A DNA stretch of 64,000 bases from Steroidobacteraceae bacterium. Lineage in GTDB: Bacteria; Pseudomonadota; Gammaproteobacteria; Steroidobacterales; Steroidobacteraceae. The notes under the pieces were generated by a model that made no database searches, was not told the origin of the DNA, and worked only from the letters and a program-made list of their open reading frames with translations. The position numbers and the translations under genes were made by a program. Shown piece by piece: positions 3,464 through 50,017 of the stretch (position 1 is its first letter; every line of letters starts with the position of its first letter). The stretch lies in NCBI GenBank assembly GCA_019634895.1, contig JAHCAM010000008.1, positions 4,785 to 68,784 on the forward strand, in the 5' to 3' direction.

Positions 3464-3910
3464 ATGTCCGCCGAAACCCGCGACAAGGGCACCCTTGCCG
3501 ACCTGACCGCGCACGCTTCCGGCCCCGAAGGGGGCTCGAACCGCGCCTTCGGCATCGTCTTCGCCGTCGTTTTCGCCATCATCGCAGCCTGGCCGCTGAT
3601 GAAGGGCGGGCCTGTGAGGCTCTGGGCGGCCGCCATTGCCGCGATCTTCCTCTTGCTGGCGCTCGCCCTGCCGCGCGTCCTCGCGCCGCTGAATCGCCTG
3701 TGGATGGCGTTCGGCCTGCTGCTGGGGCGCATCGTCAGCCCGATCATGTTGTTCCTGGTTTATGTCATCGCGGTCGTGCCCACCGGCCTGATCATGCGGA
3801 TGTTCGGCAAGGACCCGCTGCATCGGCGCTTCGACCCCGCCGCGACCAGTTACTGGGTGCATCGGGTGCCACCCGGCAAGCCCGATGGCACCATGACCCG
3901 CCAGTTCTGA
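3464..3910 (+). CDS. SxtJ-family small membrane protein
   Basis: 148 aa with two hydrophobic helices (FGIVFAVVFAIIAAWPL, LWAAAIAAIFLLLALAL). It sits just upstream of a DUF5989-like micro-ORF and a carbamoyltransferase, the arrangement I recall for sxtJ-sxtK-sxtI homologues. Confidence 0.55.
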   Translation: MSAETRDKGTLADLTAHASGPEGGSNRAFGIVFAVVFAIIAAWPLMKGGPVRLWAAAIAAIFLLLALALPRVLAPLNRLWMAFGLLLGRIVSPIMLFLVYVIAVVPTGLIMRMFGKDPLHRRFDPAATSYWVHRVPPGKPDGTMTRQF

Positions 3911-3924
3911 GGAGGCCGCGCACA

Positions 3925-4077
3925 ATGATGTCCTTCCTGAAAGAGTTCTGGGCCTTCCTCCGGGTGCGCAAGAAGTTCTGGCTGGCGCCCACGCTGATCG
4001 CCATGGCACTGCTCGGCGCGCTGATCGTGCTGTCGCAGGGATCGGCGGTCGCCCCGTTCATCTACACGCTCTTCTGA
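3925..4077 (+). CDS. DUF5989 / SxtK-like 50-aa membrane peptide
   Basis: ATG at 3925 preceded by GGAGG at 3911-3915. Peptide MMSFLKEFWAFLRVRKKFWLAPTLIAMALLGALIVLSQGSAVAPFIYTLF, a single TM. It ends 1 nt before the carbamoyltransferase start. Confidence 0.6.
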   Translation: MMSFLKEFWAFLRVRKKFWLAPTLIAMALLGALIVLSQGSAVAPFIYTLF

Positions 4078-4078
4078 C

Positions 4079-5917
4079 GTGAAGTACGTCCTCGGCATCT
4101 CCGCGTACTATCACGACAGCGCGGCGGCCCTGCTGCGCGACGGCGAAATCGTCGCGGCCGCGCAGGAAGAGCGCTTCTCGCGCAGGAAGCACGACGCGCG
4201 CTTTCCGCACCACGCGGTTGCGTACTGTCTGGCCGAGGCCGGCATCGGGGCAGCGGATCTCGACCACGTCGCCTTCTACGACAAGCCGTTCCTGAAGTTC
4301 GAGCGCCTGCTCGAGACCTACCTTGCCTTCGCGCCGCGCGGCTTCCGGTCCTTCCGCATCGCCATCCCGGTCTGGCTGCGTGAGAAGCTGTTCCTCAAGG
4401 ACCTGCTGATCCGCGAACTGAAGAAGGTGGATGCCGGCGCGCCGTGGTTCGAGAAGCTGTTGTTCGGCGAGCACCACCTGAGCCACGCCGCGAGCGCGTT
4501 CTATCCCTCGCCGTTCGAGGAAGCGGCTGTGCTCACGCTCGACGGCGTCGGCGAATGGGCAACCAGTTCTCTCGCGATCGGCCGCGGCAACCGGCTCGAG
4601 ATGCAGCGGGAGATCCACTTCCCGCACTCGATCGGGCTGCTCTACTCCGCCTTCACCTACTACACCGGCTTCAAGGTCAACTCCGGGGAGTACAAGGTCA
4701 TGGGGCTCGCGCCCTACGGCGAGCCGAAGTACGCGGACCTGATCCTGGAGCACCTGCTGGATCTCAAGGAGGACGGATCGTTCCGTCTCGACCAGCAGTA
4801 CTTCGACTACTGCACCGGCCTGACAATGACGAATGCGAAGTTCGCCGAGCTGTTCGGCGGCCCGCGCCGCAAGCCCGAGGAGCTGCTGACGCAGAAGCAC
4901 ATGGACCTGGCGGCCTCGGTGCAGAAGGTGACCGAGGAAGTGATGCTGCGCCTGACGCGATCCGTCGCCCGGGAGACCGGACAGCAGAATCTCTGCCTCG
5001 CCGGCGGCGTCGCGCTCAACTGCGTCGCCAACGGCAAGATCCTGCGCGACGGCGCATTCAGGCGGATCTGGATCCAGCCCGCTGCGGGCGACGCCGGCGG
5101 CGCGCTGGGCGCTGCGCTCTCGACCTATTACGGGATGCTCGAGGGCGAGCGAACCCGCAGCAACGGCCACGACCGGATGCGGGGCGCCTATCTCGGGCCG
5201 GCGTTCGCGCAGCACGATATCGAGCAGCGGCTGACCGCGGCCGGAGCGAAGTTCGATCGCCTGAGCGAGGCCGACATGATCGCCCGCGCGGCCCGCGACC
5301 TGGCCGACGGCAAGGCCCTGGGCTGGTTCCAGGGCCGCATGGAGTTCGGGCCGCGCGCGCTCGGCGGCCGCTCGATCCTGGGCGACGCCCGTTCGCCGAC
5401 CATGCAGAAGATGCTGAACCTCAAGGTCAAGTACCGCGAGTCATTCCGCCCTTTCGCGCCGGCGGTGCTGCGCGAAGACGTCGCCGACTGGTTCGAACTC
5501 GACGACGACAGCCCGTACATGCTGCTGGTCGCGGACGTGGTCAGGAACCGCCGCCGTGCGATGACGGAGGCCGAGCAGGCATTGTTCGGCATCGACAAGC
5601 TGAACGTGCCGCGCTCCGACATCCCCGCCGTCACGCACGTGGACTACTCGGCGCGCGTGCAGACCGTTCACGAGGACACGAACCCGCGCTATTACGCGCT
5701 CCTGCGCCAGTTCAAGCAGCTGACAGGTTGCCCGGTGATCGTCAATACGAGCTTCAACGTGCGCGGCGAGCCGATCGTCGGGTCACCGGAGGACGCGTTC
5801 CGCTGCTTCATGGGCACGGAGATCGATGTGCTCACCGTCGGCAACTGCTATCTGGAGAAACTACGGCAGTCTCCTTCGCTAAAGGTTGACTACAAGGACG
5901 CGTTTGAACTGGACTGA
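4079..5917 (+). CDS. Carbamoyltransferase, NodU/CmcH family
   Basis: 612 aa, GTG start. N-terminal MKYVLGISAYYHDSAAALLRDGEIVAAAQEERFSRRKHD; later GGVALNCVANG, FGPRALGGRSILGDARS, VNTSFNVRGEPIV. These are typical of NodU/CmcH O-carbamoyltransferases. Confidence 0.9.
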   Translation: MKYVLGISAYYHDSAAALLRDGEIVAAAQEERFSRRKHDARFPHHAVAYCLAEAGIGAADLDHVAFYDKPFLKFERLLETYLAFAPRGFRSFRIAIPVWLREKLFLKDLLIRELKKVDAGAPWFEKLLFGEHHLSHAASAFYPSPFEEAAVLTLDGVGEWATSSLAIGRGNRLEMQREIHFPHSIGLLYSAFTYYTGFKVNSGEYKVMGLAPYGEPKYADLILEHLLDLKEDGSFRLDQQYFDYCTGLTMTNAKFAELFGGPRRKPEELLTQKHMDLAASVQKVTEEVMLRLTRSVARETGQQNLCLAGGVALNCVANGKILRDGAFRRIWIQPAAGDAGGALGAALSTYYGMLEGERTRSNGHDRMRGAYLGPAFAQHDIEQRLTAAGAKFDRLSEADMIARAARDLADGKALGWFQGRMEFGPRALGGRSILGDARSPTMQKMLNLKVKYRESFRPFAPAVLREDVADWFELDDDSPYMLLVADVVRNRRRAMTEAEQALFGIDKLNVPRSDIPAVTHVDYSARVQTVHEDTNPRYYALLRQFKQLTGCPVIVNTSFNVRGEPIVGSPEDAFRCFMGTEIDVLTVGNCYLEKLRQSPSLKVDYKDAFELD

Positions 5918-5947: not shown

Positions 5948-8881
<2,934 letters not shown>

Positions 8882-8891
8882 GACAATGACC

Positions 8892-10037
8892 TTAAAGCTT
8901 CAAACCACGTGCAATGATGTTACGCTGGATCTCCGATGTCCCGGAGTAGAGCGTGCTGCCGACCGAATCCCGCAGATCGCATTCGACCAGTTGCTCCGTC
9001 ATGTAACCATATCCGCCGAATACCTGGATCGCATCGAGACAGGATTTCACGTAGCACTCGGACACGTGCAGCTTGGCGATCGCTGCCTCCGTCGTCGCAT
9101 CGCGACCCGCATCCTTCAGCTCGCCGATCCGGTACACGAGCGGCCGGCAGGTGTCGAGGCGGACACGCATGTCCACCAGCCGGTTCGCCACCGACTGGAA
9201 TTTCCCGATTGGCTTGCCGAATTGCTTCCGGCTGCGCGCGTGCGCGAGACACTCCTCGAGCTGGCGCTCCATGGCGCCCAGGCAGCTCGCGAGGATGCAA
9301 CCGCGCTCCCATTCCATGGAACACTCAAAGACCGGCACGCCGCGCCCCTCGCGTCCCAGCCGCTGGGATGCCGGCACCCGGCAATCCTCCATGATGAGTT
9401 CCGCCATCGGCGACGTGCGCAGCCCCATCTTCTCCAGCTTGCGGCCCACGCGCAGCCCCGGCGTGCCCTTCTCGATGATGAAGGCCGTAATGCCGGTCGC
9501 GCCCAGGGCGGGATCCACCGTGGCGTAGACGACGAACAGGTCGGCGACCGGCGCATTGGTCACGAACATCTTGGTGCCTGTCAGCACGTAACCGTCGCCA
9601 TCCCGCAGTGCGCGCGTCCGCAGGCTGAAGATATCGGAACCTGCATCAGGCTCCGATGCGCCATTCGCGCCGATCAGACTGCCGTCGCAAAGGGGGCGAA
9701 GGTACTTATCCTTTTGTTGCGCGGTGCCGAACTTCAGGATGGGAATCGAGTTGGTCCACAGGTGGGCGTTCAGCGAGAACAGCAGTCCCTGGTCCCGCGT
9801 GCCGCGGCCGAGACCCTCCATCACCGCCAACAGGTCGGACAGTCCCAGTCCCATGCCGCCGAACTGCGGCGGGATCGGCATGCCGAGCACGCCGAATTCG
9901 GCGCATCGCCGCCATGCGTCACGATCGAACTCGCCGGTGCGCTCGCGCCGTGCCAGGTCCTTGCCCAGCGCCGATCGCGCAAACTGCTCCGCCGCTTCGC
10001 GCAGCCTGGTCCGTTCCTCGCTCAGTTCAAGTTGCAC
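8892..10037 (-). CDS. Acyl-CoA dehydrogenase-family flavoprotein, likely acting on a carrier-protein-bound substrate
   Basis: 381 aa. ASEPDAGSDIFS, FVTNAPVADLF, FIIEKGTPGL, RKQFGKPIGKFQSVANRLVDM, SGTSEIQRNIIARGL. It lies 20 nt downstream of the adenylating enzyme. Confidence 0.85.
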   Translation of the reverse strand: MQLELSEERTRLREAAEQFARSALGKDLARRERTGEFDRDAWRRCAEFGVLGMPIPPQFGGMGLGLSDLLAVMEGLGRGTRDQGLLFSLNAHLWTNSIPILKFGTAQQKDKYLRPLCDGSLIGANGASEPDAGSDIFSLRTRALRDGDGYVLTGTKMFVTNAPVADLFVVYATVDPALGATGITAFIIEKGTPGLRVGRKLEKMGLRTSPMAELIMEDCRVPASQRLGREGRGVPVFECSMEWERGCILASCLGAMERQLEECLAHARSRKQFGKPIGKFQSVANRLVDMRVRLDTCRPLVYRIGELKDAGRDATTEAAIAKLHVSECYVKSCLDAIQVFGGYGYMTEQLVECDLRDSVGSTLYSGTSEIQRNIIARGLKL

Positions 10038-10057
10038 GGGCTCGCTCCGGTTCCGGC

Positions 10058-11548
10058 TCAGGCAATGGCGACGAGACCCTGCAGATCGACCTTGTCCGTG
10101 GACGTCCGCGGCAGGGCTTCAATGACCTTGAACCGGTCCGGGACCATGTAGGGCGGAAGGTTCCGCGACGCATGAGTCTTGAGCGCGATGATGCTCGTCG
10201 CGCGCCCCGGCTGGCAACTCACGAACGCGGTGATGCGGACGCCGGACTCCGGGTCCGGGATGGCGACGGCCGCCGTCTCGCGGATATCGGGATGCCGCGC
10301 GAGCGCCGCCTCGATCTCTCCGAGCTCGACCCGATACCCGCGCCGCTTCACCATGCGGTCGCGGCGTCCGCGATAAGTGAATTCTCCAGGAGGGCCCTCG
10401 GTCACGAGGTCGCCGGTCCGGTACCAACGTCGGCCGTCGCCGCCGGTCAGGAAGGCAGCCGCAGTCAGCTCGGGGCGATTCCAGTAGCCGCGCATGACAT
10501 TCGGCCCGGCGATGAGCAACTCGCCCGTCGCACCGACCGGAACGTCGCCGCCCTGCTCGTCCACTACCCTCGCCGAGTTTGGCGGGCACACGCTGCCGAT
10601 CGGAAAGGAATCGCGCCCCTGCCGGCAATCACCGTCCGGAATCCCGTACCAGGTGCAGACATTCGTTTCCGTCGGCCCATAGAGGTTGTAGTAACGCGGG
10701 TGCGGCCACCGTTCGCGCAGCGCCCGGAACCGCGGCATGGGAAAAACCTCGCCTGCAAACAGGACGGCCCGCAACGCGCCGCAGTCGTGGCGCTCGAGCC
10801 TGCCGTATTCGCACAGCAGATTGAGGATCGATGGCGTCGAGTACCAGTGCGTGATCCGCTCCCCCGCGATCGTCGCCGCAAGCCGCTGCGGATCCTTGCC
10901 GAGGTCCTCGCCGATGAGAACCAGCGTCGCGCCGTGCCGGGCCGGCAAGAACACGTCGAGTATCGAAAGATCGAAATGCAGCGGCGCATGCGAGGAGAAC
11001 ACGTCTTCGCACGTCGGACGAAAGGTCGCGGAACACCAGTCCAGGAAGCTCAGTGCGTTGCCATGCGTGAGGACGACGCCCTTGGGCCTGCCGGTGGATC
11101 CGGACGTGTAGAGAACATAGGCGACGTCGTCCACATTGCAGCTGGTCGTAGCGGTCGCCGGCGCGTCCGGCAGTTCCCGCAGGTCCAGGAGCCGCGGGGA
11201 AACGGACTGCTTTGCCAGTTCCTCCGACAGCGCCTGCCGAGCGCCGGGCTCTGCGATGACGGCCTTGACCTGGCAGTCGCCCAGGATGAACGCGCCGCGC
11301 GCCACCGGGGAATCCGCATCCACGGGAACGTAGGCCGCGCCTGCCTTCAGGATGCCGAATATCGCGGCGACGGCGTCCGGCGACTTGTGCAGCCGCAGAC
11401 CCACGCGATCCCCACGCCCGACGCCGATCTGCCGCAGGCAATTGCGTATCCGGTCCGATCGCGCAGTCAGTTCGGTATGCGTCACCACCGCACCATCGCA
11501 GCGCACCGTGAACGTCGCGCTTTCCGCCAGCAGGTCGCCCAGGCTCAT
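10058..11548 (-). CDS. Stand-alone NRPS-type adenylation enzyme (DltA-like amino acid--carrier protein ligase)
   Basis: Start taken at internal ATG 11548 (MSLGDLL...), which forms an ATGA overlap with the carrier-protein stop. Core motifs YVLYTSGSTGRPKG, FDLSILDVF, NLYGPTETN, GELLIAGPNVMRGY, YRTGDL, GRRDRMVKRRGYRVELGEIE, LPPYMVP, TSTDKVD. Confidence 0.85.
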   Translation of the reverse strand: MSLGDLLAESATFTVRCDGAVVTHTELTARSDRIRNCLRQIGVGRGDRVGLRLHKSPDAVAAIFGILKAGAAYVPVDADSPVARGAFILGDCQVKAVIAEPGARQALSEELAKQSVSPRLLDLRELPDAPATATTSCNVDDVAYVLYTSGSTGRPKGVVLTHGNALSFLDWCSATFRPTCEDVFSSHAPLHFDLSILDVFLPARHGATLVLIGEDLGKDPQRLAATIAGERITHWYSTPSILNLLCEYGRLERHDCGALRAVLFAGEVFPMPRFRALRERWPHPRYYNLYGPTETNVCTWYGIPDGDCRQGRDSFPIGSVCPPNSARVVDEQGGDVPVGATGELLIAGPNVMRGYWNRPELTAAAFLTGGDGRRWYRTGDLVTEGPPGEFTYRGRRDRMVKRRGYRVELGEIEAALARHPDIRETAAVAIPDPESGVRITAFVSCQPGRATSIIALKTHASRNLPPYMVPDRFKVIEALPRTSTDKVDLQGLVAIA

Positions 11549-11790
11549 AACTTCGATTGCACCAGCCGTTGCAGCGCCGCAATGCTCGAAAGGTTTGCAG
11601 GCTCGAGGTCCGCCGCGGCGAACTCGATCGCGAACTGCTCCTCTAGATACGTGACCAGCTTGAGCGTGGACATCGAATCCAGGATCCCGCTCTCCTTCAG
11701 CTCCGTATCGTCGGTCAGGTTCGACGGGTCCTCTCCCGGGAGCAGGTTCTCGAGGATGTACGCCCTGAGCACGGATCTGATGTCGTTCAT
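11545..11790 (-). CDS. Acyl/peptidyl carrier protein (DltC-like)
   Basis: 81 aa from internal ATG 11790 (ATGA overlap with the MBOAT gene stop). Phosphopantetheine site in SGILDSMSTLKLV. Confidence 0.8.
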   Translation of the reverse strand: MNDIRSVLRAYILENLLPGEDPSNLTDDTELKESGILDSMSTLKLVTYLEEQFAIEFAAADLEPANLSSIAALQRLVQSKL

Positions 11791-14315
11791 TCTGCTGCAA
11801 ACTCCTTGTCTATGAAGGCCGCCAGGCCTGGATAGAGCCTGTCGGCAATGAGGCGATGGCCCTCGGCGTTCGGGTGGTCGTCCCACGACGCGACACGAAG
11901 CGCTGCGCGGCGTTCCTCCGGGTAGATTCCCAGCAAGTTCACGACCGGCAGGCCGGCCGCGCGCAAGGCTTCCTGGTTCGGCAGTTCGCGGGTCTCACGC
12001 TCCACGACTGCATCCAGCGCGACGACCAACGGCTTGACCCCGCGTTCGCGCGCGACCCTGGCAAACCGGGCGATCGCCGCATCCGATACCTCGTCCACGA
12101 TCCCGTGGATGCGTCCTTCGATCTCTGCACCCGGCATGCGCACGTTCACCCCGACCCAACGGGCAGCCCTGCGCCAGGGCTCGAACGGCACCGGCAGGCC
12201 ATCCCGGCCGACGTCTTCGATTCCGGCGGACCGGACCAGTTGCAGGACTTCTTCATGCGGAATCCCGACGCCGCGCCAGATGGTCTTGTAGAGGAAGACA
12301 CGGGACATTGCCCGGTTCGCATGATACGTCGTCATGATAACGACGTCGGGCGCGAAATCGAAGACACGCTCCTCGAGCATCCGGACCTGCTGCGTCAGGC
12401 AGTAGCCGTCAACGCCGAAGTTGAGGACCTCGTAGCGGCCGATACCCGGCAGCGCATGCTCGCGGTTCAGCCGGTCCTCCACCAGCGCCTCGAAGGTCTC
12501 GCCGTCGCCGACGCCGTTGCCCATGACGTGCGAAGGGCCCAGCAGCGCAATGCGCAGCGTCCCTGGTGCCTTTTCGAGTTCGTAGTCGCGGTCCCGCATG
12601 CCCCAGCGATTGGTGGAGAACGCGTTGCCATTCCAGACGACGCTGCGCGCCGGCAGCAGGTCACGCTCCAGGAAGTCATCGCGCAGCCGCAGTACGCCGG
12701 TGCTCGGCAGGTCCTGCCACTCGTCACGCCTCGCACCCGGCTGGTCCAGGTCCTGCGTGGCGAGACGCGCCCGCACGTCGAGCTGCTCGTAGTAGCCGCG
12801 ATGCTGAAGTTCCGCGTCGCGCACGTTCAGCCCGGTCGTGTGCAGCGCCGCCACCTTGTCCGCGACCGGCGCAGGCAACAGCCCAACGACGCTTGGAATC
12901 GCCAGGACGAGCAGAGCGGCCAACGGCAGCACGGTGCGCAGCACTGGCCTCGCCGAGGAAAGCGCGTCCCTGCTGCGGCCGCCCAGCCAGGTCAGCAGCA
13001 CGATCGCTGCGCCGATCAGCAGCGCACCCTTCGCATCCACGTTGATGGCCGCACCGAGCGTCCAGATCCACTGGCCTACCGATTCCGCGCTCCAAAGCGA
13101 CCACAGGAAGCAGAACAGCAGGAATGTGCCGCTCGTTCGGAGTCCCTCCGTGAGGCTCCATCGCGCGGCGCCTCGCAGCCGCTTCGGGCCTGGCCGAAGC
13201 TCGCGGATGGCGCCGACAATCACCAGCCCGCCGAGCAGTCCCCAGAACAGGATGTCCTGTGGAGTGACCGGAAATCCTCCGCGCAGCCAGAACCACTGGT
13301 ACGAGTGCAGCGCCCAGGTGGTCGCGAACACGGCCGCCGTCGCGATGCCGATCGCCATGGCCGGCCTCAGCTTCTTGACCCGGAAGTACACCGGATAGAA
13401 TACGAAGGACATCATGAAGTCCTTCCAGTAGATGTTGATGCGCCGCCACAGCTCGGTGAAGTTCCGCGACAGGTAGTAGAGCTTGTGCGTTTCAGGCAGC
13501 CGGAATCCGAAGAGGTGCAGCATGCCCACGATGAGGTGGAACATGCCCGACACCCGCAGGTACAACAGGAAAGTGCCCAGCATCCATTGCGCGAGGTCGC
13601 CTAGCGCCTCGACGTCCGCCGCATCGTTGACCACGCGCTGGTAGACCAGGCGGTAGAGCAGCAAGTGCACGATGCCCCGCGCGATCCAGAGCAGCCCCTG
13701 CTGGTAGATGACGGCGGAATCCTTGTCGAAGTGCGACCGCCGGAAAGTCTGGTAATCGATAACCGGAAACAGCGGGAACACCAGGTTGGGAAACATGAAG
13801 AAGTAGCCCAGCGCCGCCCAGATCCGCCCCTGCCGCGGTTCGGTTGCCAGCGACTTCGCGTAGATCGCGAGCCGGAACATGAACATCGAGCCCAGGATCG
13901 GCCAGACCACTGACGACCAGGGCGCGGCGATGGCACCTGCTCGCGAGGCGGCAAGCAGGCCTCCGATGGCGAGCAGCAGGGCGACTCGCGCCCACAGCGG
14001 CAGCGGAAGGTGGCAAGTGCCAATGAGCACCACGCCACAGGCGATGAGCCACGCGCCGTCCGCGGGACTGAACACCAGGAACACCGCGGCCAGCGACAGC
14101 AAGGCGAAGAATGGCAGCCTCCACGCGGCCCGCAGGAACATGGATACCGCGAAGCCTGCGGCCGCCAGCATGAAGAGCCGCAAGAATGCGGGTCCCTCGA
14201 TGCCATAGGCATGAACCACCAGCCCTGCGAGCAGCAACTGCGCCGCCAACGCGGCAATCGTTACAGCGGAAGGGCGCTCGGCGCCAATTTCTGGCGCTTC
14301 TGATTGTCCGGACAT
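11787..14315 (-). CDS. MBOAT-family membrane acyltransferase (AlgI/DltB-like) fused to a C-terminal SGNH/DltD-like extracytoplasmic domain
   Basis: 842 aa. About 11 hydrophobic segments in aa 1-480. MBOAT signature NFTELWRRINIYWKDFMMSFVFYPV and downstream TTWALHSYQW. After a last TM (LPLAALLVLAIPSVVGLL) comes a soluble domain with LRIALLGPSHVMGNG, FGVDGY and WDDHPNAEGHRLIA (SGNH block I/II/V-like). Confidence 0.8.
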   Translation of the reverse strand: MSGQSEAPEIGAERPSAVTIAALAAQLLLAGLVVHAYGIEGPAFLRLFMLAAAGFAVSMFLRAAWRLPFFALLSLAAVFLVFSPADGAWLIACGVVLIGTCHLPLPLWARVALLLAIGGLLAASRAGAIAAPWSSVVWPILGSMFMFRLAIYAKSLATEPRQGRIWAALGYFFMFPNLVFPLFPVIDYQTFRRSHFDKDSAVIYQQGLLWIARGIVHLLLYRLVYQRVVNDAADVEALGDLAQWMLGTFLLYLRVSGMFHLIVGMLHLFGFRLPETHKLYYLSRNFTELWRRINIYWKDFMMSFVFYPVYFRVKKLRPAMAIGIATAAVFATTWALHSYQWFWLRGGFPVTPQDILFWGLLGGLVIVGAIRELRPGPKRLRGAARWSLTEGLRTSGTFLLFCFLWSLWSAESVGQWIWTLGAAINVDAKGALLIGAAIVLLTWLGGRSRDALSSARPVLRTVLPLAALLVLAIPSVVGLLPAPVADKVAALHTTGLNVRDAELQHRGYYEQLDVRARLATQDLDQPGARRDEWQDLPSTGVLRLRDDFLERDLLPARSVVWNGNAFSTNRWGMRDRDYELEKAPGTLRIALLGPSHVMGNGVGDGETFEALVEDRLNREHALPGIGRYEVLNFGVDGYCLTQQVRMLEERVFDFAPDVVIMTTYHANRAMSRVFLYKTIWRGVGIPHEEVLQLVRSAGIEDVGRDGLPVPFEPWRRAARWVGVNVRMPGAEIEGRIHGIVDEVSDAAIARFARVARERGVKPLVVALDAVVERETRELPNQEALRAAGLPVVNLLGIYPEERRAALRVASWDDHPNAEGHRLIADRLYPGLAAFIDKEFAAE

Positions 14316-14763
14316 TGTGCTCAGCTACGGCCAGTTTCCGTCGAAATGCTTCTCATTCTAGCTTTGCACCGCTGGACTCTGCCTGAAATCCCGCACGCAG
14401 CCATCTTCCGGACGGAGGTGAGCCGCTTATGGCAAGTGAGCGAGCGCGGGGTGGAAGCGCATCGCAAATATTCTTCTCAAATCTGCTGATGACAAGCTAC
14501 CGCACACGTGTATGCGCCCGAACCCATTCTTGTCGATCGAACATTCCAGGCGCAAGATCGGCGCGTGGCAATATCGACTATAGTCTGCGGCACCTGCGCA
14601 ACAATCACGAACAGCAGTCCGGCCGGACGACTTACTTGTCACTCAAGCGAAAACGATGAGGCCCGGAAAGTCTTGCTCTGAACATGCCTGGGATGGGACC
14701 TGGGATTCGGCGGGGACAGTCACTCGCTGGTTTAAGGTGGCGGAACTTCAAGTGGAGCTATGA
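14316..14763. promoter_or_regulatory. Divergent intergenic control region between TU2 and TU3
   Basis: 448 bp non-coding gap, the longest in the window, and clearly lower in GC. It is flanked by divergent start codons at 14315 (-) and 14764 (+). Promoter elements were not resolved. Confidence 0.4.
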
Positions 14764-16071
14764 ATGCCGATGTCCAGGTGGGGCGTAACTTGCCAAACAA
14801 TTCTGCTGCGTCTCGCACTCGGCATCTTGTTCGGCACGATCCTGTTGCTGTACGCACCCCAGTCGACGCTGGGGTTGGCGATTGTGGCAATTATGGCCGC
14901 TCTGGTTGCGATTCTCAGGCCATCGAACGCTGCACTACTCACGACGTCGCTCCTGGTCATAACACTCATGCTGGAAGGTCTGTTTCGATTCCTAGCCAAC
15001 GACGTGGTGACACCGTACTACCGACCCCATGAAGTGCTGGCACTTGACACGCGCTACAAGCCGTCGGAACTCCTTGTGATGCACGTGCCACATGGTGATT
15101 TGCTCGCCATCGACCCATCACTCTCAAGGGATCTGGCCGTACCACGAACCGAGATCTTTCGTACAGACTCTCTGGGATTTCGCAACGATTACGACTACTC
15201 GGGACAAAAGCTCCTGATCGTTGGCGATTCGTTTGTGGCCGGCAATGGAAACTCTCAAGAACACACCATCACAGCCCGATTGCTCACCCAGTTTGGAGTT
15301 TACAGCTATAACCTGGGATTTCAGGCCGGTCCATTCGGGTACTCCGAACGTATCAGCTGGCTTCGCGAGCACTTCCCCCGCGACGCTTGTGTTGTTCTTT
15401 TAATGTTTGAAGGGAATGATTTTCAGTCAATCACTTCGCTTGGCGCCGCCGCCTATACCGACGTGCCTCGCGGCTTGCGAGAAACAGCAAAGAAGTACGT
15501 GCGATTCGTGCGTGAGCCATTTGTCCTTCCGCGAGTTGTGTATGGGCTCGTAACCCGGGCGCAGGCCGTGATCAAGAGCCGTGTTTCAGAACGTGTGCCC
15601 AATCATCAGCGCAACGCCGCGGACAAGGAATCGCGCGTGACCCTGTTGGGGACGGTGCGGGGACGGCCGATTGCCTTTCTCGCCGGGTATGCCGAGGTGG
15701 TCTACAGGACTCAGTATGATGATTTCGGGTTTCTTCATCAGAACCTTGCACGCGCCCGCCCCGACACTATCTTCTTCGTGCCGGACAAGTTCCGTGTGTA
15801 CGGTCCGCTGCTCGATGACCCCGTAGATGGGGCATTTCCCGATGCTCAATGGGCTCATCTCAAGCGTGCGGCAGATGATCTCGGTATTCCCGCCTTCAAT
15901 CTGACAGAACGCTTGCTGTCGCGATCCGCGAAGCTCGCGGACTCGGGGGATCTGACGTTCTGGCCGGATGACACGCATTGGAATGTCCACGGTATGGACG
16001 TCGCGGCAGAAGCGATCATCGCCGATCTAGCAGACGCTGGCGTCGATCATTGTGTTGTTGCGGTACATTAG
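14764..16071 (+). CDS. Membrane-anchored SGNH/AlgJ-AlgX-like acyltransferase/esterase
   Basis: 435 aa. N-terminal TM helices. LLIVGDSFVAGNG (block I) and FWPDDTHWNVHG (the D..HW motif typical of AlgJ/AlgX-type O-acetyltransferases). Confidence 0.65.
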   Translation: MPMSRWGVTCQTILLRLALGILFGTILLLYAPQSTLGLAIVAIMAALVAILRPSNAALLTTSLLVITLMLEGLFRFLANDVVTPYYRPHEVLALDTRYKPSELLVMHVPHGDLLAIDPSLSRDLAVPRTEIFRTDSLGFRNDYDYSGQKLLIVGDSFVAGNGNSQEHTITARLLTQFGVYSYNLGFQAGPFGYSERISWLREHFPRDACVVLLMFEGNDFQSITSLGAAAYTDVPRGLRETAKKYVRFVREPFVLPRVVYGLVTRAQAVIKSRVSERVPNHQRNAADKESRVTLLGTVRGRPIAFLAGYAEVVYRTQYDDFGFLHQNLARARPDTIFFVPDKFRVYGPLLDDPVDGAFPDAQWAHLKRAADDLGIPAFNLTERLLSRSAKLADSGDLTFWPDDTHWNVHGMDVAAEAIIADLADAGVDHCVVAVH

Positions 16072-16289
16072 GAGCATGGGGAGTTCTCACTTGCGCCGTG
16101 AGTGCAGCAGCAGGGATCGAGCGATGGCCGCGTTACCGCCGCTCCCAAGGCTGCCCGCGCCGCACGCACAAGGCGCCGACTTATACGAAGCCAATGACTT
16201 TAGTGCAACAGCGCAGGACGAGTCCGCGCAGTTGAAGGTCGTCCGGCCAACGGCTGCCCCGGGCAACTGGCCTTGAGTCCACTCGAACA

Positions 16290-17357
16290 GTGAGCTTTAA
16301 CCAGTTCAATTGGCGCAAAAGTTCCCGAGCGAAGCGCCCAGCTCGCCCTGGCATGCCCGACAGCAAGACGTCCGTTGGCCCGCGCGTTTTTACTGACCTG
16401 CAAGTTTCTCAGTCCGAGTGGTGGGCCACGCGTATCTCTGTGTTCCGTGCACGGCACGGTCGCGGACTGCTCATTCAGCTTGGAAACGTCTTATCGCTGC
16501 TTTGTGCCGCTGCGAAGCACGATGTGGTCATCACCTCAAGTGTTCGGAATGCCCTGCTCCTGGGCCTGACCAAGTCGCTTGGGCTTGTCCGTCGACCGCG
16601 AATCGTGACGGTAGAGACCAGACTGGATGAGCCTGCACCTGGACTCCGTTGGAGGCTGAAAGTTTGCCTGCAGCGGATTGCCTTCAGGCATGTTGACGTC
16701 GTCTGCGTATCAGCGCGCGACGAAATCAAAGCATATTCCGACCGCCTCAGATTGCCGGTTGGACGGTTTCGCTTTGTGCCGTGGCACACCAACGTGCTCG
16801 AACCCGCTCGCTACAGCGCACCGGACGGATACATATTCAGCGCAGGCCGTACTGGCAGGGACTGGAGCACCTTCACGGAAGCCGTGAAGGGACTCGCGTG
16901 CCCCATAGCGGTCGTTTGCGATGCCGATACGCGCATCCGCGAGACCTTTCCCAAGCATGCGACAGTTGAGAGCGAGATTCCGTATGCTCGATACCGGCAG
17001 TTGTTGATCGGCGCGCGTATCGTCGTCATACCGCTTGAGGAGCGAGTCTACTCTTCAGGGCAGGTCGTCATCCTGGAAGCCATGGCCCTCGGCAAGCCCG
17101 TCATCGCAACGCGAGCAGTCGGCTCGGCAGACTACATCAACGATGGCATCACCGGCTTGCTGGTACCGCCAAATGACGCTCCGTCACTGCGCGCTGCCAT
17201 CGTCAGACTGCTCGAAGACGACGCCCTGGCCGATCGACTGTCGCGGAATGCCCTCGAGACCGTGCTCGAAAGCCATACCCTCGACAGGTATCTTCATACA
17301 ATCGAAGGCATTGCGAAACGACTTGCATTGAAACAGCGCGCGCCGGTTGAAGACTGA
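16290..17357 (+). CDS. Glycosyltransferase family 4
   Basis: 355 aa from GTG 16290; an in-frame ATG at 16353 is an alternative start. C-terminal SSGQVVILEAMALGKPVIATRAVGSADYINDGITGLLVPP. Confidence 0.75.
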   Translation: MSFNQFNWRKSSRAKRPARPGMPDSKTSVGPRVFTDLQVSQSEWWATRISVFRARHGRGLLIQLGNVLSLLCAAAKHDVVITSSVRNALLLGLTKSLGLVRRPRIVTVETRLDEPAPGLRWRLKVCLQRIAFRHVDVVCVSARDEIKAYSDRLRLPVGRFRFVPWHTNVLEPARYSAPDGYIFSAGRTGRDWSTFTEAVKGLACPIAVVCDADTRIRETFPKHATVESEIPYARYRQLLIGARIVVIPLEERVYSSGQVVILEAMALGKPVIATRAVGSADYINDGITGLLVPPNDAPSLRAAIVRLLEDDALADRLSRNALETVLESHTLDRYLHTIEGIAKRLALKQRAPVED

Positions 17358-17387
17358 TACCTGCTCAAAGCCATTGCGGAGTGCCTG

Positions 17388-18284
17388 ATGTCGCCAGCAA
17401 CTTCCAGGAAAGGAATCATTCTAGCCGGTGGCACGGGCACGCGGCTTCATCCTGTCACGCTCGCGTTGAGCAAGCAGTTGGTACCGGTCTACGACAAGCC
17501 CATGGTGTATTACCCGCTCTCCACGCTCATGCTGGCCGGCATCCGTGAGTTTCTCATCATCACCACGCCACGTGACCAGACCGCTTTTGAGGGTCTGCTG
17601 GGTGATGGCAGCCAGTGGAACATATCGATCAGCTACGCGGTGCAACCGGAGCCAAACGGCATTGCGCAGGCGTTCCTCATTGGTGCGAACTTCATTGGCA
17701 ATAGTGCAGTTTCGCTGATACTGGGAGACAACATCTTCTACGGGCACAACCTGAGCCGGACATTGCAGCGCTGCGCGAAGAGACAGGCCGGTGCCACGGT
17801 ATTTGGCTATTACGTCCAGGATCCGGAACGATATGGCGTCGCGCAGTTCGACTCCAAGGGCCGACTGGTCGACCTGGTCGAAAAGCCGGAGCGCGCGCCG
17901 TCCAATTACGCGATTACGGGCATCTACTTTTACGACCGGAACGTCGTCAATATGGCGCGGCAGTTGAGCCCGTCCGCTCGCGGCGAGCTCGAAATCACAG
18001 ATCTCAATCGGGCATACCTGCGCAAAGGAAACCTCAAGCTCGAGAAGCTGGGTCGCGGCACCGCCTGGCTGGATACCGGCACGCCTGCTTCGCTGACGGA
18101 CGCCGGCAATTTCGTGCGTATTGTGGAAGAAAGACAGGGTCTCAAGATTGCCTGTGTGGAGGAAGTGGCGTTCCGTATGGGGTATATCAATCGCGAGCGG
18201 TTGCGACGCCTCGCAGCGCCGCTTCGCAAGAGTGGCTACGGCGAGTATTTGCTTGGCCTGCTGAAGGACAGGCGGCCACCGTGA
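17388..18284 (+). CDS. rfbA: Glucose-1-phosphate thymidylyltransferase
   Basis: 298 aa. [54 protein letters not shown] is the canonical RmlA. Confidence 0.95.
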
Positions 18285-18829
18285 GGTTCACACCGCAGGC
18301 AATCGCAGATGTCGTCCTTGTCGAGCCCACGGTGCTGTGGGACGCACGCGGCTGCTTTCAGGAAGTCTGGCGATCCGACCGGTTCGCAGAGGCTGGCATC
18401 GACGCAACTTTTGTTCAGGACAATCACAGCAGATCCGTCTGCGGCACGCTTCGCGGTCTTCACTATCAGCTGGAGAAGCCGCAGGGCAAGCTGGTCCGCG
18501 TGGTCAGCGGCGAGATCTATGACGTTGCCGTCGATCTGCGCCGAAACTCTCCCACATTCGGCAGGTGGGTCGGCACCACGCTCTCAGCTGAAAACTTCTG
18601 CCAGCTCTGGGTACCACCAGGGTTTGCACATGGGTTCTATGTTACGAGCGCATCTGCCGACGTCAGTTACAAGTGCACTGCCTTTTACCATGCTCCTTCA
18701 GAGCGCTGCCTGTTGTGGAATGATCCAGAACTTGCGATCACTTGGCCGATGACTGCCGGTCGCCCTCCTCTCATTTCTGCAAAAGACCAGGCCGGCACGC
18801 GCCTTCGGATTGCAGAGACGTTTCAGTGA
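18281..18829 (+). CDS. rfbC: dTDP-4-dehydrorhamnose 3,5-epimerase
   Basis: 182 aa. [56 protein letters not shown]. Confidence 0.92.
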
Positions 18830-19695
18830 GGGTGCTATTGACCGGCGCCAGTGGTCAGCTTGGATGGGAACTTCAACGTACGGTCCCGGACAGCGTCGAA
18901 CTTTTCGCCAAGAGCCATGCTGAACTTGACATCTGCGATGAGCAGTCAGTAGCTCGGGCATTCCGGTTGCACAGCCCCGAACTGGTGGTAAATACCGCTG
19001 CATTCACAGACGTCGACCGGGCGGAGCATTCTCGCGACCTGGCCTTTGCAATCAACGCTGAAGGTCCGCGTCTGATTGCCCGCCAGGCCGCTGATGCCGG
19101 CGGCCGCATGATCCAGGTCTCGACTGACTACGTGTTCGCCGGTGACGGCAATACTCCCATTCTGCCGACAGCACGTACGGCGCCGAACTCCGCTTATGGC
19201 CGTAGTAAGCTGGCAGGGGAGAAGCATGTGCTGCAGTTGCTCGGAACGCAATGTGCCGTTGTCCGCACTGCATGGCTGTACTCGAGACACGGCCGCAATT
19301 TCGTCAAGACAATGCTCGGTCTGATGAGATCCCGAACGAACTTGGGCGTAGTTTCAGACCAGCTTGGCTCGCCAACCTGGGCGAGGGAGCTTGCCCGATC
19401 GATATGGGCATTCGCTGCACGAGCCGACCTGCACGGCGTCTACCATTGGACCGACGACGGCGTGGCGAGCTGGTACGACTTCGCAGTTGCCATCCGCGAC
19501 AACGGTCTCGAACGGGGACTACTCAAGCGCCGGGTCGTCATTGACCCTATTCCAGCGGCAGCATACCCGACCGCTGCCCGGCGGCCTCGTTACAGCGTTC
19601 TGGACAAGCGCTCGACGATTGACGTACTCGGAGTGTCTCCGAATCATTGGCAGACCAATCTCTCACACATGTTGGACGACCTCGCAAATGCGTAG
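18826..19695 (+). CDS. rfbD: dTDP-4-dehydrorhamnose reductase
   Basis: Start set at in-frame GTG 18826 (GTGA overlap with the rfbC stop), giving [16 protein letters not shown]. Also NTAAFTDVDRAE, STDYVFAG, YGRSKLAGE. Confidence 0.88.
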   Translation: MRVLLTGASGQLGWELQRTVPDSVELFAKSHAELDICDEQSVARAFRLHSPELVVNTAAFTDVDRAEHSRDLAFAINAEGPRLIARQAADAGGRMIQVSTDYVFAGDGNTPILPTARTAPNSAYGRSKLAGEKHVLQLLGTQCAVVRTAWLYSRHGRNFVKTMLGLMRSRTNLGVVSDQLGSPTWARELARSIWAFAARADLHGVYHWTDDGVASWYDFAVAIRDNGLERGLLKRRVVIDPIPAAAYPTAARRPRYSVLDKRSTIDVLGVSPNHWQTNLSHMLDDLANA

Positions 19696-20791
19696 TCTGT
19701 TGATCACCGGCGGCGCAGGATTCATTGGTGCCAATTTTGTGCATTACTGGCGAGCACGGTACCCCGATGATCGCCTCGTTGTCCTCGACGCCCTCACCTA
19801 TGCCGGCAACCGCGCAAACCTGGCAACCCTCGAGGGCTCACCAGGATTCCATTTTGTTCGAGGCAACATCTGCGAGCAGTCGCTTGATGAGTCTCTGCTG
19901 CGGGAGCATGCCGTCGACACGGTCGTACACTTCGCGGCCGAATCGCACGTGGATCGCTCGATCGTTGGTCCGGGCGCCTTCATTTCGACGAATATCCTTG
20001 GTACGCACGCGCTGCTGGAAGCCTGCAGGTCCGTCTGGACCACCGATGCGCTGGCCGCTCAGCACCGGTTTCATCACATCTCCACGGACGAGGTTTACGG
20101 ATCTTTGGCGCAGGATGATCCCGCCTTCACCGAGTCAACACCGTATGCCCCGAACTCGCCTTACGCTGCCAGCAAGGCAGCGTCAGACCACCTCGTGCGC
20201 GCCTATTGCCACACCTATGGACTGGACACAACGATAACAAACTGTTCGAACAACTATGGCCCGTACCAGTTTCCAGAGAAGCTTATCCCGTTGATGATCG
20301 TCAATGTCTTGCTCGGAAAGCCGCTGCCGGTCTACGGCGACGGCGGCAATGTCCGTGATTGGATCCACGTGCGGGATCACTGCCATGCGATCGAGCGCGT
20401 ACTGCAGGCTGGAAGAAAAGGTTCCACCTACAATGTTGGCGGCGACTGCGAACTCGATAACCTTTCGCTCGTACGAATGATATGCGAGATCATGGACCGG
20501 GAACTCGACATGAATGCAGGACTATGCAAGAGATTTCCTGCCGCGCGGGGCGGCAAGCGCGCCCGTTCCGCTGATCTCATCAAGTTTGTCAAAGACCGAC
20601 CGGGACACGATCGGCGCTACGCCATCAATGGTCGCCTGATTCGCGAGGAGCTTGGTTTCGTGCCAACGACAAGTCTCGAGAAAGGATTGGCGGAGACAAT
20701 CACCTGGTATCTCTCAAACGAGCAATGGTGGCGCGCGGTCATGACGGGCACCTATCGCAACTGGATTGCCACGAACTATTCCAACCGCTGA
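19688..20791 (+). CDS. rfbB: dTDP-glucose 4,6-dehydratase
   Basis: Start at in-frame ATG 19688 (MRSLLITGGAGFIGANFV). Also HFAAESHVDRS, HISTDEVYG, PYAASKAASDH, CSNNYGPYQFPEKLIP. Confidence 0.92.
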   Translation: MRSLLITGGAGFIGANFVHYWRARYPDDRLVVLDALTYAGNRANLATLEGSPGFHFVRGNICEQSLDESLLREHAVDTVVHFAAESHVDRSIVGPGAFISTNILGTHALLEACRSVWTTDALAAQHRFHHISTDEVYGSLAQDDPAFTESTPYAPNSPYAASKAASDHLVRAYCHTYGLDTTITNCSNNYGPYQFPEKLIPLMIVNVLLGKPLPVYGDGGNVRDWIHVRDHCHAIERVLQAGRKGSTYNVGGDCELDNLSLVRMICEIMDRELDMNAGLCKRFPAARGGKRARSADLIKFVKDRPGHDRRYAINGRLIREELGFVPTTSLEKGLAETITWYLSNEQWWRAVMTGTYRNWIATNYSNR

Positions 20792-33344: not shown

Positions 33345-34018
33345 ATGCGCACAAATGTGATCTCATGGGACAGTGGTGGACTGGCGACCGACATCGACGT
33401 GCTCGCCGAAGCCCTGCGCCGCGCGGGTTGTGATGTCTGGTTCAAGGGTCGTCGCCATCGCGTTGCCAGAAGTGGTATCAATAGCTTGGTGACGACCGCC
33501 ATTCCCAATGCCTGGAGATTGCCGCGTTTGGCCGTACGCGGCGCTATTGCGGCGAGGCAGCAACACCGCTTCCACCACTGTAGAGAAGGCGAGTTCACAC
33601 CGAGTATGTTGCCGATAATCACCTTCGAAAACTGCAGTACCGGTGCAGACTCCACTTCATCCACTCTCTCTGGCCGAAGGCTACGACCAGCTGATCGCCG
33701 AAGCGCTAAGCTGCGGGCCGCGGTCGTGACTACGGAAACACCACCGACAAACGAGCGTGTCATCTCCGAGCGGGCTTCCTGATTCGCGTCGCGAAGTCAG
33801 GGCGTATGCGGTGTTCGGCGAGGTATATGGCAGATGTTACGGATCTCGAAGCAAAGTTGAGTGCGACTCTCATTCTTTGGCGGGAGACGCCTGTCTTGTT
33901 GGGCTTCAATGCCCAAGCATGGTTCGAGGCCCGCAAGCAAGGCCTCGAGCCAGAGGTTTGCGCGTTGCTACATGATGTGTCCAGGCTCGCCAAGGTGGCG
34001 GGACTTCCTAAAACATGA
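33345..34018 (+). pseudogene. Decayed paralogue of the 5948-6994 glycosyltransferase (frameshifts plus an internal deletion)
   Basis: Similarity to the 348-aa GT is split over three frames. Frame A: NVISWDSGGLATDIDVLAEALRRAGCDVWFKGRR vs VNIVSWDGGGLGTDIDVLSSALARADCEVRYKGRR. Frame B: EYVADNHLRKLQYRCRLH vs GYVCESDLRRLQNECEIH. Frame C: LSLAEGYDQLIAEALSCG vs LPSQAEAYGHVIGEAMSCG. Back in frame A: AAVVTTETPPTNERV. A further reading frame gives the tail (VTDLEAKL...NAQAWFEARKQG vs ISDLEHKL...NARAWFEAERTR). The span is 674 bp against 1047 bp for the intact gene. Confidence 0.8.
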
Positions 34019-35337
34019 GAACCACGCTTTTCGTCCTGATGGTACTGGTTGGCCTGCTGTTCGCAGGGTTCCTCTATCGGCAAGGTTATGTCGAGGGCGG
34101 ATTTGGTCCCGCTGCCCTACTCGGCGCCACAGTCCTTGCTGTAGTCGTCCTCATACTCGGACTGATGACCTGGTTGAGCGGTACGCGCTTTCGCCCAATC
34201 GTCGTCAACGCTCTTCTGGTACTCACGGCGACTACCTTCACCTACATCGTTGTTGACTTTGCGGCCGGCAGACTGCTTATCGTGCCACTCTCGCCGCCGC
34301 TAGTGCCGGATCCCTATCGGCACCATGCCTTGGTGCCCGATTCCTATGCGGAACTGCGGCAACGGGATTTTCACTACATCCAGCGCGTCAATCACTTCGG
34401 CTTACGGGGCCGCGAAACGACCGTGGGCAAGCCTCCCGGGACACGAAGGATACTGATGCTGGGTGATTCATTCACCATGGGTAAGGGCGTCGAGGATGAC
34501 CAGACATTCTCCGTGCTCGTGGAGCAGGAACTGCGGGCGAGGCTCGCGACTTGCAGTGGCGGCACCGTGGAAGTCCTCAACGCCGGAGTGGACAGCTATT
34601 CGCCGCTGCTCTCCTACATTCAATTCAGCCGCGACTTGGTTCGCTTTGCTCCGGATCTTGTGATTCTCAATCTGGACCACAGCGACCTCGTGCAGGAACA
34701 GGCCTACCGACGGCAGGCAGTTCGTGACAGCAGTGGCGAAATTGTCGCCGTACCGCAGGTCTGGCAGCAGTCCCTGTACGAGAGGGTTCTGAGTTGGGTC
34801 TCACGAAACCTGTACCTTACTCGCATCCTTCTGGTCCACGTCAATCGCGCGATGGACCATCGCGAACTGACGGTACGGCGTGTGGTCAACGAGTTCGGGC
34901 GCGAGCATTTTGCCCACACGCTGGAGGGAGACGTTGACCGATCTGCACAGTGGCAGGACATCTTTGACTCGATTGTCCGCATCAAGACACTGTCAGCATC
35001 GATCGACGCGGATTTCCTCCTTGCGACTTATCCGTGGGGACACCAGCTCGCGAATGCGGGCTGGGAGGCCGGACGGAAGGACCTGATGAAGGACGGCGAA
35101 CGGACCTCCAATGTCACCCAGCAGACCATTCGCACACATTCGACGGCCCTTGGCATCGACCTGCTTGAGACACTGCCGGATTTCAAAGCTTACAACAGCC
35201 GCGGACCACTCTATTTCGACTACGATCCGCATTGGACTCCCGCCGGACACCGGGTAATGGCGGACTCCCTCGCGAAGTTCGTCAGGGACCACTATATCTC
35301 GCGATGGTGCACATCGATCTCCGCCAAGGAGCCGTAG
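34015..35337 (+). CDS. Membrane-anchored SGNH/GDSL-like hydrolase or acyltransferase
   Basis: 440 aa with three N-terminal TM helices. ILMLGDSFTMGKG (block I), NAGVDSYSP, and FDYDPHWTPAGHRVMA (block V-like). Confidence 0.65.
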   Translation: MRTTLFVLMVLVGLLFAGFLYRQGYVEGGFGPAALLGATVLAVVVLILGLMTWLSGTRFRPIVVNALLVLTATTFTYIVVDFAAGRLLIVPLSPPLVPDPYRHHALVPDSYAELRQRDFHYIQRVNHFGLRGRETTVGKPPGTRRILMLGDSFTMGKGVEDDQTFSVLVEQELRARLATCSGGTVEVLNAGVDSYSPLLSYIQFSRDLVRFAPDLVILNLDHSDLVQEQAYRRQAVRDSSGEIVAVPQVWQQSLYERVLSWVSRNLYLTRILLVHVNRAMDHRELTVRRVVNEFGREHFAHTLEGDVDRSAQWQDIFDSIVRIKTLSASIDADFLLATYPWGHQLANAGWEAGRKDLMKDGERTSNVTQQTIRTHSTALGIDLLETLPDFKAYNSRGPLYFDYDPHWTPAGHRVMADSLAKFVRDHYISRWCTSISAKEP

Positions 35338-49759: not shown

Positions 49760-50017
49760 TCAGGCGGCCTTGCGCTTGGAAGTGACGAAGGCGGCGATGC
49801 GGTTCACCGAATCGAGGTTCTCGGGAATCATCTCGCTGTCGGCGACCTTGACGCCGAGCTGCTCCTCGATGAACAGGATGATCTCGAGCATGCCGGTGGA
49901 GTCCACGATGCCGCGGCCGAGCAGCGAGTCGTCGAGGCCGAGCTGCGACGCGTCATCCGTGAACAGGTAGTTCTCGAGGATGAAGCGGCGGACCTGGTCG
50001 TGCAGTGAATCGCTCAT
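49760..50017 (-). CDS. Acyl carrier protein (second copy)
   Basis: 85 aa. Phosphopantetheine site GIVDSTGMLEIILFIEE. Overall architecture parallels the carrier at 11545-11790. Confidence 0.8.
   Translation of the reverse strand: MSDSLHDQVRRFILENYLFTDDASQLGLDDSLLGRGIVDSTGMLEIILFIEEQLGVKVADSEMIPENLDSVNRIAAFVTSKRKAA

Follow-up and report, generated by a model that had tools for sequence, protein, structure and literature searches.

A fused MBOAT–SGNH protein beside predicted proline-loading genes: a candidate carrier-fed acyl relay

In a 2025 account, bacterial polymers are acylated either by separate pairs of an MBOAT (membrane-bound O-acyltransferase) and an SGNH protein or by fused AT3–SGNH proteins, and the Dlt pathway is the sole MBOAT/SGNH system that uses a carrier protein (PMC12148441). 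Fusion of a membrane acyltransferase to an SGNH domain is common with the AT3 domain, which is unrelated to MBOAT (PMC9558356). Here we analyzed 64,000 nucleotides of contig JAHCAM010000008.1 from a Steroidobacteraceae bacterium (assembly GCA_019634895.1), hereafter the window. An initial annotation of this DNA had described an open reading frame (ORF) that joins an MBOAT to an SGNH domain, and it had rightly stated that the characterized partners are separate proteins (PMC12148441). Fold matches to DltB and to SGNH proteins bear out the presence of both domains in one chain of 842 amino acids (aa). More important than the fusion itself is the set of four genes to which it belongs, with genes for a carrier protein, an adenylation enzyme and a dehydrogenase beside it. 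In a literature search with sparse coverage of subscription journals, we found nothing on the fusion family, on fused MBOAT–SGNH proteins or on pyrrole-acylated polysaccharide.

We propose, as an evenly balanced judgment, that the four genes form a single-chain, carrier-fed Dlt-type acyl relay with a proline-derived cargo, by which pyrrole-2-carbonyl is exported onto a surface glycan. In the cytoplasm, the adenylation enzyme would load L-proline onto the carrier protein, and the flavoprotein dehydrogenase would oxidize the carrier-bound proline, most likely to pyrrole-2-carbonyl. The loaded carrier would dock on the cytoplasmic face of the MBOAT. With the aid of Asn294, His337 would then acylate one of two tyrosines, Tyr508 or Tyr509, on a mobile arm at the outer side, from which the group would pass to Ser595 in the SGNH domain. 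That domain would acylate an acceptor beyond the inner membrane, in this bacterium probably the Wzx/Wzy exopolysaccharide of the surrounding locus.

Such a relay would be a third design, fused, carrier-fed and found mostly in diderms. With both active sites and the shuttle in one chain, it would be convenient for trapping acyl intermediates and would test whether a free C-terminus is necessary for a shuttle tyrosine. Should the cargo prove to be pyrrole-2-carbonyl, the surface modification would be one for which we found no report, and some genome-mined "pyrrole natural-product" triads would serve the envelope instead. More tentatively, and with the balance slightly against it, the pathway in at least 11 phylum-level groups might place pyrrole-2-carboxylate esters, halogenated in some lineages, on surface polysaccharide through a single-chain equivalent of DltB, DltX and DltD with an internal tyrosine shuttle, the cargo being swapped via the loading genes.

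The fusion protein compared with described systems

The fusion is real and intact and is a member of a widespread uncharacterized family. A search at E ≤ 1e-3 gave 3212 homologues, the best 120 of which are 820–890 aa long with 94–100% coverage, and GTDB genomes held 274 loci with homologues. Record titles place them in Verrucomicrobiota, Acidobacteriota, Pseudomonadota, Gemmatimonadota, Myxococcota, Methylomirabilota, Rhodothermales, Anaerolineales, Pirellulales, Hydrogenedentota and Eisenbacteria. Within its own genus the fusion is an accessory gene, present in 1 of the 18 other genomes searched, several of which are incomplete. Its features are as follows.

11787..14315, minus strand: MBOAT–shuttle–SGNH fusion, 842 aa, ATG start; from the ORF, homologues and an AlphaFold model (predicted local distance difference test, pLDDT, 91.5; predicted template-modeling score, pTM, 0.89)
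13062..14204, minus strand: DltB-fold MBOAT core, aa 38–418; from fold comparison and hhalign
13434..13436, minus strand: Asn294, end of WRRIN; at DltB His289 by the alignment chain
13305..13307, minus strand: His337; aligns with the histidine of the AlgI-type GLWH, which aligns with catalytic DltB His336
12900..13034, minus strand: two extra transmembrane helices, aa 428–445 and 457–472, with a basic cytoplasmic loop between; from the model and Lys/Arg counts
12786..12797, minus strand: GYYE, aa 507–510, candidate internal tyrosine acyl shuttle; after the last helix and before the SGNH domain
11802..12737, minus strand: SGNH-fold domain with N-terminal extension, aa 527–838; from Pfam, VIA-align and conservation
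12533-12531, minus strand: Ser595 of GPSH (block I); in 150 of 150 distant representatives
11882-11874, minus strand: Asp812-x-His814 (block V); Asp812 in 145 and His814 in 147 of 150

Among 48,161 chains, DltB (8JEM) was the top match of the MBOAT core (aa 39–418 of the model; VIA-align Z 21.2, root-mean-square deviation (rmsd) 4.1 over 356 residues). The ten best chains for the fusion model were all MBOATs, and the next unrelated chain scored Z 6.3. Sequence searches failed to detect the MBOAT, which was recognized only by profile–profile and fold comparison. No MBOAT was recognized in the fusion by Pfam or NCBIfam; PF03062 gave no match at E 0.1 for the fusion or ten homologues; a PDB sequence search with the single protein or a 124-sequence family profile returned no DltB; and an MBOAT family search of the genome found only another gene. 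On its predicted fold and aligned catalytic residues, the domain is a divergent branch that lies outside the Pfam model.

Residues were mapped onto DltB by a two-step alignment, with the canonical AlgI-type MBOAT of the same genome (L081:1132-2571, minus strand, G000 contig C68) as the bridge. The family profile aligns with this protein at E 9.6e-6, and the latter with DltB at E 8e-24. It ends in FIYFQF and served as an internal control; a 356-aa membrane-anchored gene after it looks like its SGNH-type partner. The mapping agrees with the earlier suggestion that His337 is the equivalent of the catalytic histidine, and this residue is kept in all 124 family sequences and in all 150 distant representatives (32–47% identity). 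Asn294, kept in 147 of the 150, does stand at DltB His289 as a variant of the MBOAT motif. The variant is a minor point because asparagine is usual there in eukaryotic MBOATs, namely ACAT1 (Asn421), DGAT1 (Asn378) and PORCN (Asn301) (PMC11035591). Only for a bacterial MBOAT is it out of the ordinary, and it marks the family without pointing to odd chemistry.

The initial annotation had given aa 1–480 to the MBOAT, with one further transmembrane helix. The polytopic MBOAT stands, but its core stops near aa 418, and the AlphaFold model has two transmembrane helices beyond it, with a short helix between them. PatA has the same layout of helix, short helix, helix and then motif (PMC12148441). Family-wide net loop charges are +4.9 at 371–390, −1.8 at 409–428 and +2.2 at 444–460. 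As these alternate inside, outside and inside, the region after helix 457–472 should lie outside. The SGNH domain is thus almost certainly periplasmic, as the initial annotation had implied, and the helix count of the split forms described below agrees with this.

In the SGNH domain, the best fold match is CgnD (VIA-align Z 20.3, rmsd 3.5 over 245 residues), ahead of TesA-like esterases (Z about 15). The match to Pfam Lipase_GDSL_2 (E 9e-5) is below the cut-off. All motif positions given earlier are correct, WRRIN ending in Asn294, His337, GPSH with Ser595 and Asp812-Asp813-His814, and aa 585–830 correspond to nucleotides 12563–11826. The assignment of blocks I and V holds for Ser595, Asp812 and His814, but Asp813 is variable. 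Block V has the form D-x-H in AlgJ/AlgX as well. Block II was assigned by position, with Gly637 in 105 and Asn632, ahead of it, in 148 of the 150 representatives.

The Dlt pathway of Firmicutes (DltA, DltC, DltB, DltX and DltD) shares with the cassette a stand-alone adenylation enzyme and carrier protein, a DltB-fold MBOAT with the His336 equivalent, a tyrosine motif past a transmembrane helix and an outer SGNH enzyme. It differs in that the fusion has the three membrane parts in one chain, asparagine at His289 and an internal GYYExL instead of a C-terminal FxYxxF. The cassette loader, moreover, has a proline code, a dehydrogenase is added, and the hosts are mostly diderms that lack teichoic acid. 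The fusion cassette would work like Dlt but is not a member, as its loader is not DltA and the C-terminal FxYxxF is absent.

PatA/PatB, AlgI/AlgJ-AlgX and WssH/WssI have in common with the fusion an MBOAT core with two extra helices and a tyrosine motif, and a polysaccharide-locus setting. Their donor is acetyl-CoA (shown for PatA) and their SGNH protein is separate, whereas in the fusion the donor is likely the carrier and the SGNH domain is fused. The AT3–SGNH fusions OatA, OafA and OafB also combine in one polypeptide a membrane acyltransferase, an internal acyl-tyrosine, for which GYYE is the candidate in the present fusion, and an outer SGNH transferase. However, the membrane domain of the present fusion has the MBOAT fold, not AT3, and its donor is probably carrier-bound. 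In the ESM Atlas, another uncharacterized cluster from Bacillota combines MBOAT with DHHW/ALGX domains (score 0.76). As a lead only, this suggests that MBOAT fusion may have arisen more than once.

Loading genes and the predicted cargo

Three genes follow the fusion on the same strand.

11545..11790, minus strand: carrier protein, 81 aa, Ser39, PP-binding; start overlaps the fusion stop
10058..11548, minus strand: stand-alone adenylation enzyme, 496 aa, code DLLYLALVCK (L-proline type); start overlaps the carrier stop
8892..10037, minus strand: prolyl-carrier-protein dehydrogenase, 381 aa, Glu244; 20-base gap after the adenylation gene

The nearest solved relatives of the carrier protein include PltL, PigG and 2MY5, which rank above DltC, and the best single-domain PDB match of the adenylation enzyme is PltF (6O6E, E 1e-91). 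The code of the latter was read at positions that we take, by motif correspondence, to be those of GrsA. It agrees with L(L/F)YLALVC, the consensus for proline loaders of the stand-alone kind (PMC3874040), and a code of the proline type occurs in the query and in each of the 55 orthologues with >40% identity. Against DltA models the enzyme reaches 278–286 bits, well below the cut-offs of 476–560 for a D-alanine-specific loader. Glu244 of the dehydrogenase aligns with the glutamate of AnaB and PigA and occurs in the query as well as in each of the 55 cassette orthologues; it is the catalytic residue of prolyl-carrier dehydrogenases (PMC11177257). The genome encodes two phosphopantetheinyl transferases.

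The three cytoplasmic genes have their top or near-top solved relatives in the thiotemplated proline-oxidation triads PltF/PltL/PltE, PigI/PigG/PigA, RedM/RedO/RedW, Bmp4/Bmp1/Bmp3, AnaC/AnaD/AnaB and CloN4/CloN5/CloN3, and share the proline code and catalytic glutamate with them. Those triads feed polyketide synthase or nonribosomal peptide synthetase lines or cytoplasmic acyltransferases, whereas the partner here is a membrane relay, and the conserved cassette contains no polyketide synthase or nonribosomal peptide synthetase.

Of 80 loci, 53 have the carrier, loader and dehydrogenase genes next to the fusion, in varying order; of the 49 loci with at least 3.5 kb on each side, 42 do. The linkage is also seen from the loader. 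On contigs that are long enough, matches at or above roughly 50% identity are mostly beside a fusion, and those at 40–46% are almost all from other proline triads. In a FastTree tree, for which some of the grouping came from the fusion search itself, a clade of 74 loader rows (SH-like support 97) contains 65 fusion-linked loaders and none of the 41 non-linked ones. The other nine rows of the clade, L099 and L101 (9–12 kb) among them, showed no fusion in the DNA covered. As a sole starting point the dehydrogenase is unspecific: in a search of 400 genomes of the class, four others had a strong match, and only one of these had the fusion. We conclude that the cargo is very probably proline-derived and carrier-bound.

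Some loci deviate from this arrangement. In two Verrucomicrobiales (L001:3366-6118 and L003:7983-10735), the fusion is accompanied by the carrier alone, with no loader or dehydrogenase nearby. In L099:3527-6538 and L101:5792-9813, a cassette-type proline loader adjoins a distant flavin halogenase-like gene, with a methyltransferase also in L101, and no fusion, carrier or dehydrogenase lies within 9–12 kb. The exopolysaccharide locus of the window itself has a second adenylation enzyme (48227-49741, minus strand) with a carrier gene just upstream (about 49780-49990, minus strand), and similar second pairs lie near the cassette in L009 and L053.

The oxidation state of the cargo is a separate matter. 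PltA-like halogenases act on carrier-bound aromatic rings. Halogenases of the PltA/ChlB4 type (E 2e-167 to PltA) stand beside the cassette in five loci, amid the cassette genes in L062 and L052, which favors pyrrole over pyrroline. Halogenases that act on carrier-bound pyrroles are described, and PltE, RedW and Bmp3 as a rule carry out a four-electron oxidation (PMC11177257). The other possibility is that the same relay exports a two-electron product, a pyrroline-carbonyl as made by AnaB, or a group further modified before export. The dehydrogenase ranking speaks for this and thereby weighs against our proposal. AnaB is a two-electron enzyme. It is also the top solved match of the dehydrogenase, ahead of PigA (427 vs 350 bits; E 8e-127 and 3e-103, followed by Bmp3 at 5e-91 and general acyl-CoA dehydrogenases at E ≥ 1e-81). 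Moreover, the score with the NCBIfam PigA model is 458 bits at a cut-off of 500, and the RedW cut-off is likewise not reached. A pyrroline ester would, however, presumably be labile outside the cell. We consider the pyrroline or modified cargo unlikely, and pyrrole rather than pyrroline the likely one.

Locus setting and the putative acceptor

With an export protein (Wza), a chain-length regulator and kinase (Wzc), a polymerase (Wzy), a flippase, rml and gmd for rhamnose pathways and many glycosyltransferases, the window represents a Wzx/Wzy exopolysaccharide locus. Several fusion relatives, though not others, are in polysaccharide loci too. Directly downstream of the cassette lies the following block.

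5948..8881, minus strand: Rmd-like reductase, GDP-mannose dehydratase and GT4 glycosyltransferase; from Pfam

The GC content is about 58–61% in this block and in the SGNH–glycosyltransferase–rml block (14764-20791), as against about 66% in the cassette, and third-position GC is 0.60 in the GT4 gene vs 0.81–0.83 in the cassette. The former contrast suggests a mosaic locus. The gmd/rmd/GT4 block had no close matches in related loci, and the GDP-D-rhamnose genes were rejected as a constant component of the system because they are not conserved beside the cassette.

All characterized MBOAT/SGNH pairs acylate an envelope polymer (PMC12148441). By this analogy a glycan acceptor is favored, with somewhat less assurance than the pyrrole cargo; it is the least tested step. 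Instead, the SGNH domain could hydrolyze the exported group and so release a free pyrrole acid, or the acyl group could end up on a lipid, on a surface protein or on a secreted small molecule. Several observations point that way and count against the glycan. CgnD, the best SGNH fold match, is a slow hydrolase (PMC10070186). Against the proposed relay as a whole, the block III asparagine (GxND) is missing, as no conserved asparagine was found at 660–670 among the 150 representatives; position 665 is Asp/Glu in 119 of them and His in the query. No glycan gene is a constant neighbor of the cassette (GT4 in 10 of about 97 loci), some cassettes have none nearby, and in Steroidobacter flavus there is none within 10 kb. 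Methyltransferases and halogenases recur beside the cassette, as in natural-product clusters. Yet the precedent of the characterized pairs and the polysaccharide loci of this window and several relatives stand against a non-polysaccharide acceptor, and a three-step relay would be costly for mere excretion of an acid. Such an acceptor appears about as improbable as the pyrroline cargo.

The GYYE motif and the split forms

Between the last helix and the SGNH domain, the linker is variable except for one motif. GYYE is invariant in 124 of 124 family sequences, and among the distant representatives Tyr508 is found in 150 of 150 and Tyr509 in 149. In DltX and PatA the acyl group is carried on the tyrosine of an FxYxxF motif just past a transmembrane helix, and an acyl-tyrosine intermediate is common to DltB/DltX/DltD, PatA/PatB and OatA (PMC12148441). 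By analogy, the fusion looks like DltB, a DltX-like shuttle and a DltD-like enzyme in one chain, and an acyl relay through tyrosine is probable.

The structural evidence is less favorable to this relay. The GYYE segment has pLDDT below 50 in the full AlphaFold model and is undocked; in a model cut at aa 513, which imitates a C-terminal motif, residues 508–513 are still below 50. GYYEQL resembles FxYxxF only loosely and is not C-terminal. The low confidence would fit a mobile arm. A complex prediction of aa 14–482 with aa 492–528 scored 0.02 and was counted neither for nor against.

The initial annotation suggested a direct hand-off from the MBOAT to Ser595, in which case GYYE would be merely structural. 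In none of the models do the tyrosines sit in the funnel, and pTM 0.89 suggests fixed packing of the two domains, as a direct hand-off would have it. A structural motif, on the other hand, would be expected to model confidently, acyl-tyrosine intermediates occur in the related systems named above, and GYYE is retained in the split forms. Because a conserved Tyr-Tyr motif occupies the place of the shuttle tyrosine in DltX and PatA, the direct hand-off is probably wrong, and we regard it as less probable than either alternative for cargo or acceptor.

The split homologues consist of two adjacent genes and were found in one near-complete genome and on one separate metagenome contig; six more proteins of each half come from other assemblies and group as a split clade. 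The first gene encodes an MBOAT that ends near aa 424, the DltB boundary, and the second encodes one helix, GYYE and the SGNH domain. About one helix and a loop of the fusion are absent, a loss that the topology predicts and that a sequencing frameshift would not produce. The split forms support the comparison with Dlt: their state is DltB plus a joined DltX-like and DltD-like protein, to which the fusion would add a return helix.

In three loci of the split clade, a point against a uniform proline cargo, the loader is fatty-acyl-AMP-ligase-like, a carrier-like gene accompanies it and no prolyl dehydrogenase lies nearby; two of the three have chorismate-lyase-like and PaaK-like genes upstream. 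The carrier serine motif is not clearly seen in L187 and L189. Another split locus, L134, retains a proline-type loader. The three loci with another loader indicate that the cargo is not fixed across the whole family; the membrane machine seems tied to a carrier protein, with an exchangeable cargo module. In L187:4682-11176 and L188:4618-11130, the split pair lies amid chorismate-lyase-like, PaaK-like, carrier-like and fatty-acyl-AMP-ligase-like genes, and the same relay possibly exports an aromatic acyl group such as hydroxybenzoyl.

Although two-gene forms exist, an artefact of assembly or reading frame is refuted, and a cytoplasmic SGNH domain is most improbable, given thousands of full-length homologues, an independently assembled contig (run X2) that covers 8800-14500 unbroken with 61 substitutions and 0 gaps, and a charge pattern and helix loss in the split forms that fit an outside domain. 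An unrecognized frameshift or stop, raised as a concern at the outset, is thereby excluded. Third-position GC in the fusion frame is 0.83, and the long plus-strand ORF at 11856-13604 is read as an antisense shadow of the fusion gene.

The fusion C-terminus lacks FxYxxF, and the genome has only two ORFs that end in this motif, neither of them in the cassette. In the window, a 50-aa one-helix DUF5989/SxtK-like protein (3925-4077, plus strand) ends in FIYTLF, the FxYxxF motif of DltX/PatA, and its gene is flanked by genes for an SxtJ-like protein (3464-3910) and for a carbamoyltransferase (4079-5917). A separate FxYxxF microprotein occurs in only 5 of about 97 related loci, each time adjoining a carbamoyltransferase; the DUF5989 protein was therefore rejected as the cassette shuttle and may be part of a separate carbamoyl relay. 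Two stand-alone membrane-anchored SGNH/AlgX-like genes, at 14764-16071 (plus strand, divergent from the fusion) and 34015-35337 (plus strand, product 36% identical to fusion aa 569–684), could encode proteins that take acyl groups from either relay.

Cultured organisms with the fusion include Methylomonas subterranea SURF-2, Mesorhizobium temperatum SDW018 and Steroidobacter flavus, so that the prediction is testable now. In 12 of 80 loci (L018, L030-L032, L034, L035, L051, L052, L057, L066, L075 and L078), two or more full fusion paralogues, 36–46% identical to the query, lie close together, usually with one common loading module, and perhaps serve different acceptor sites.

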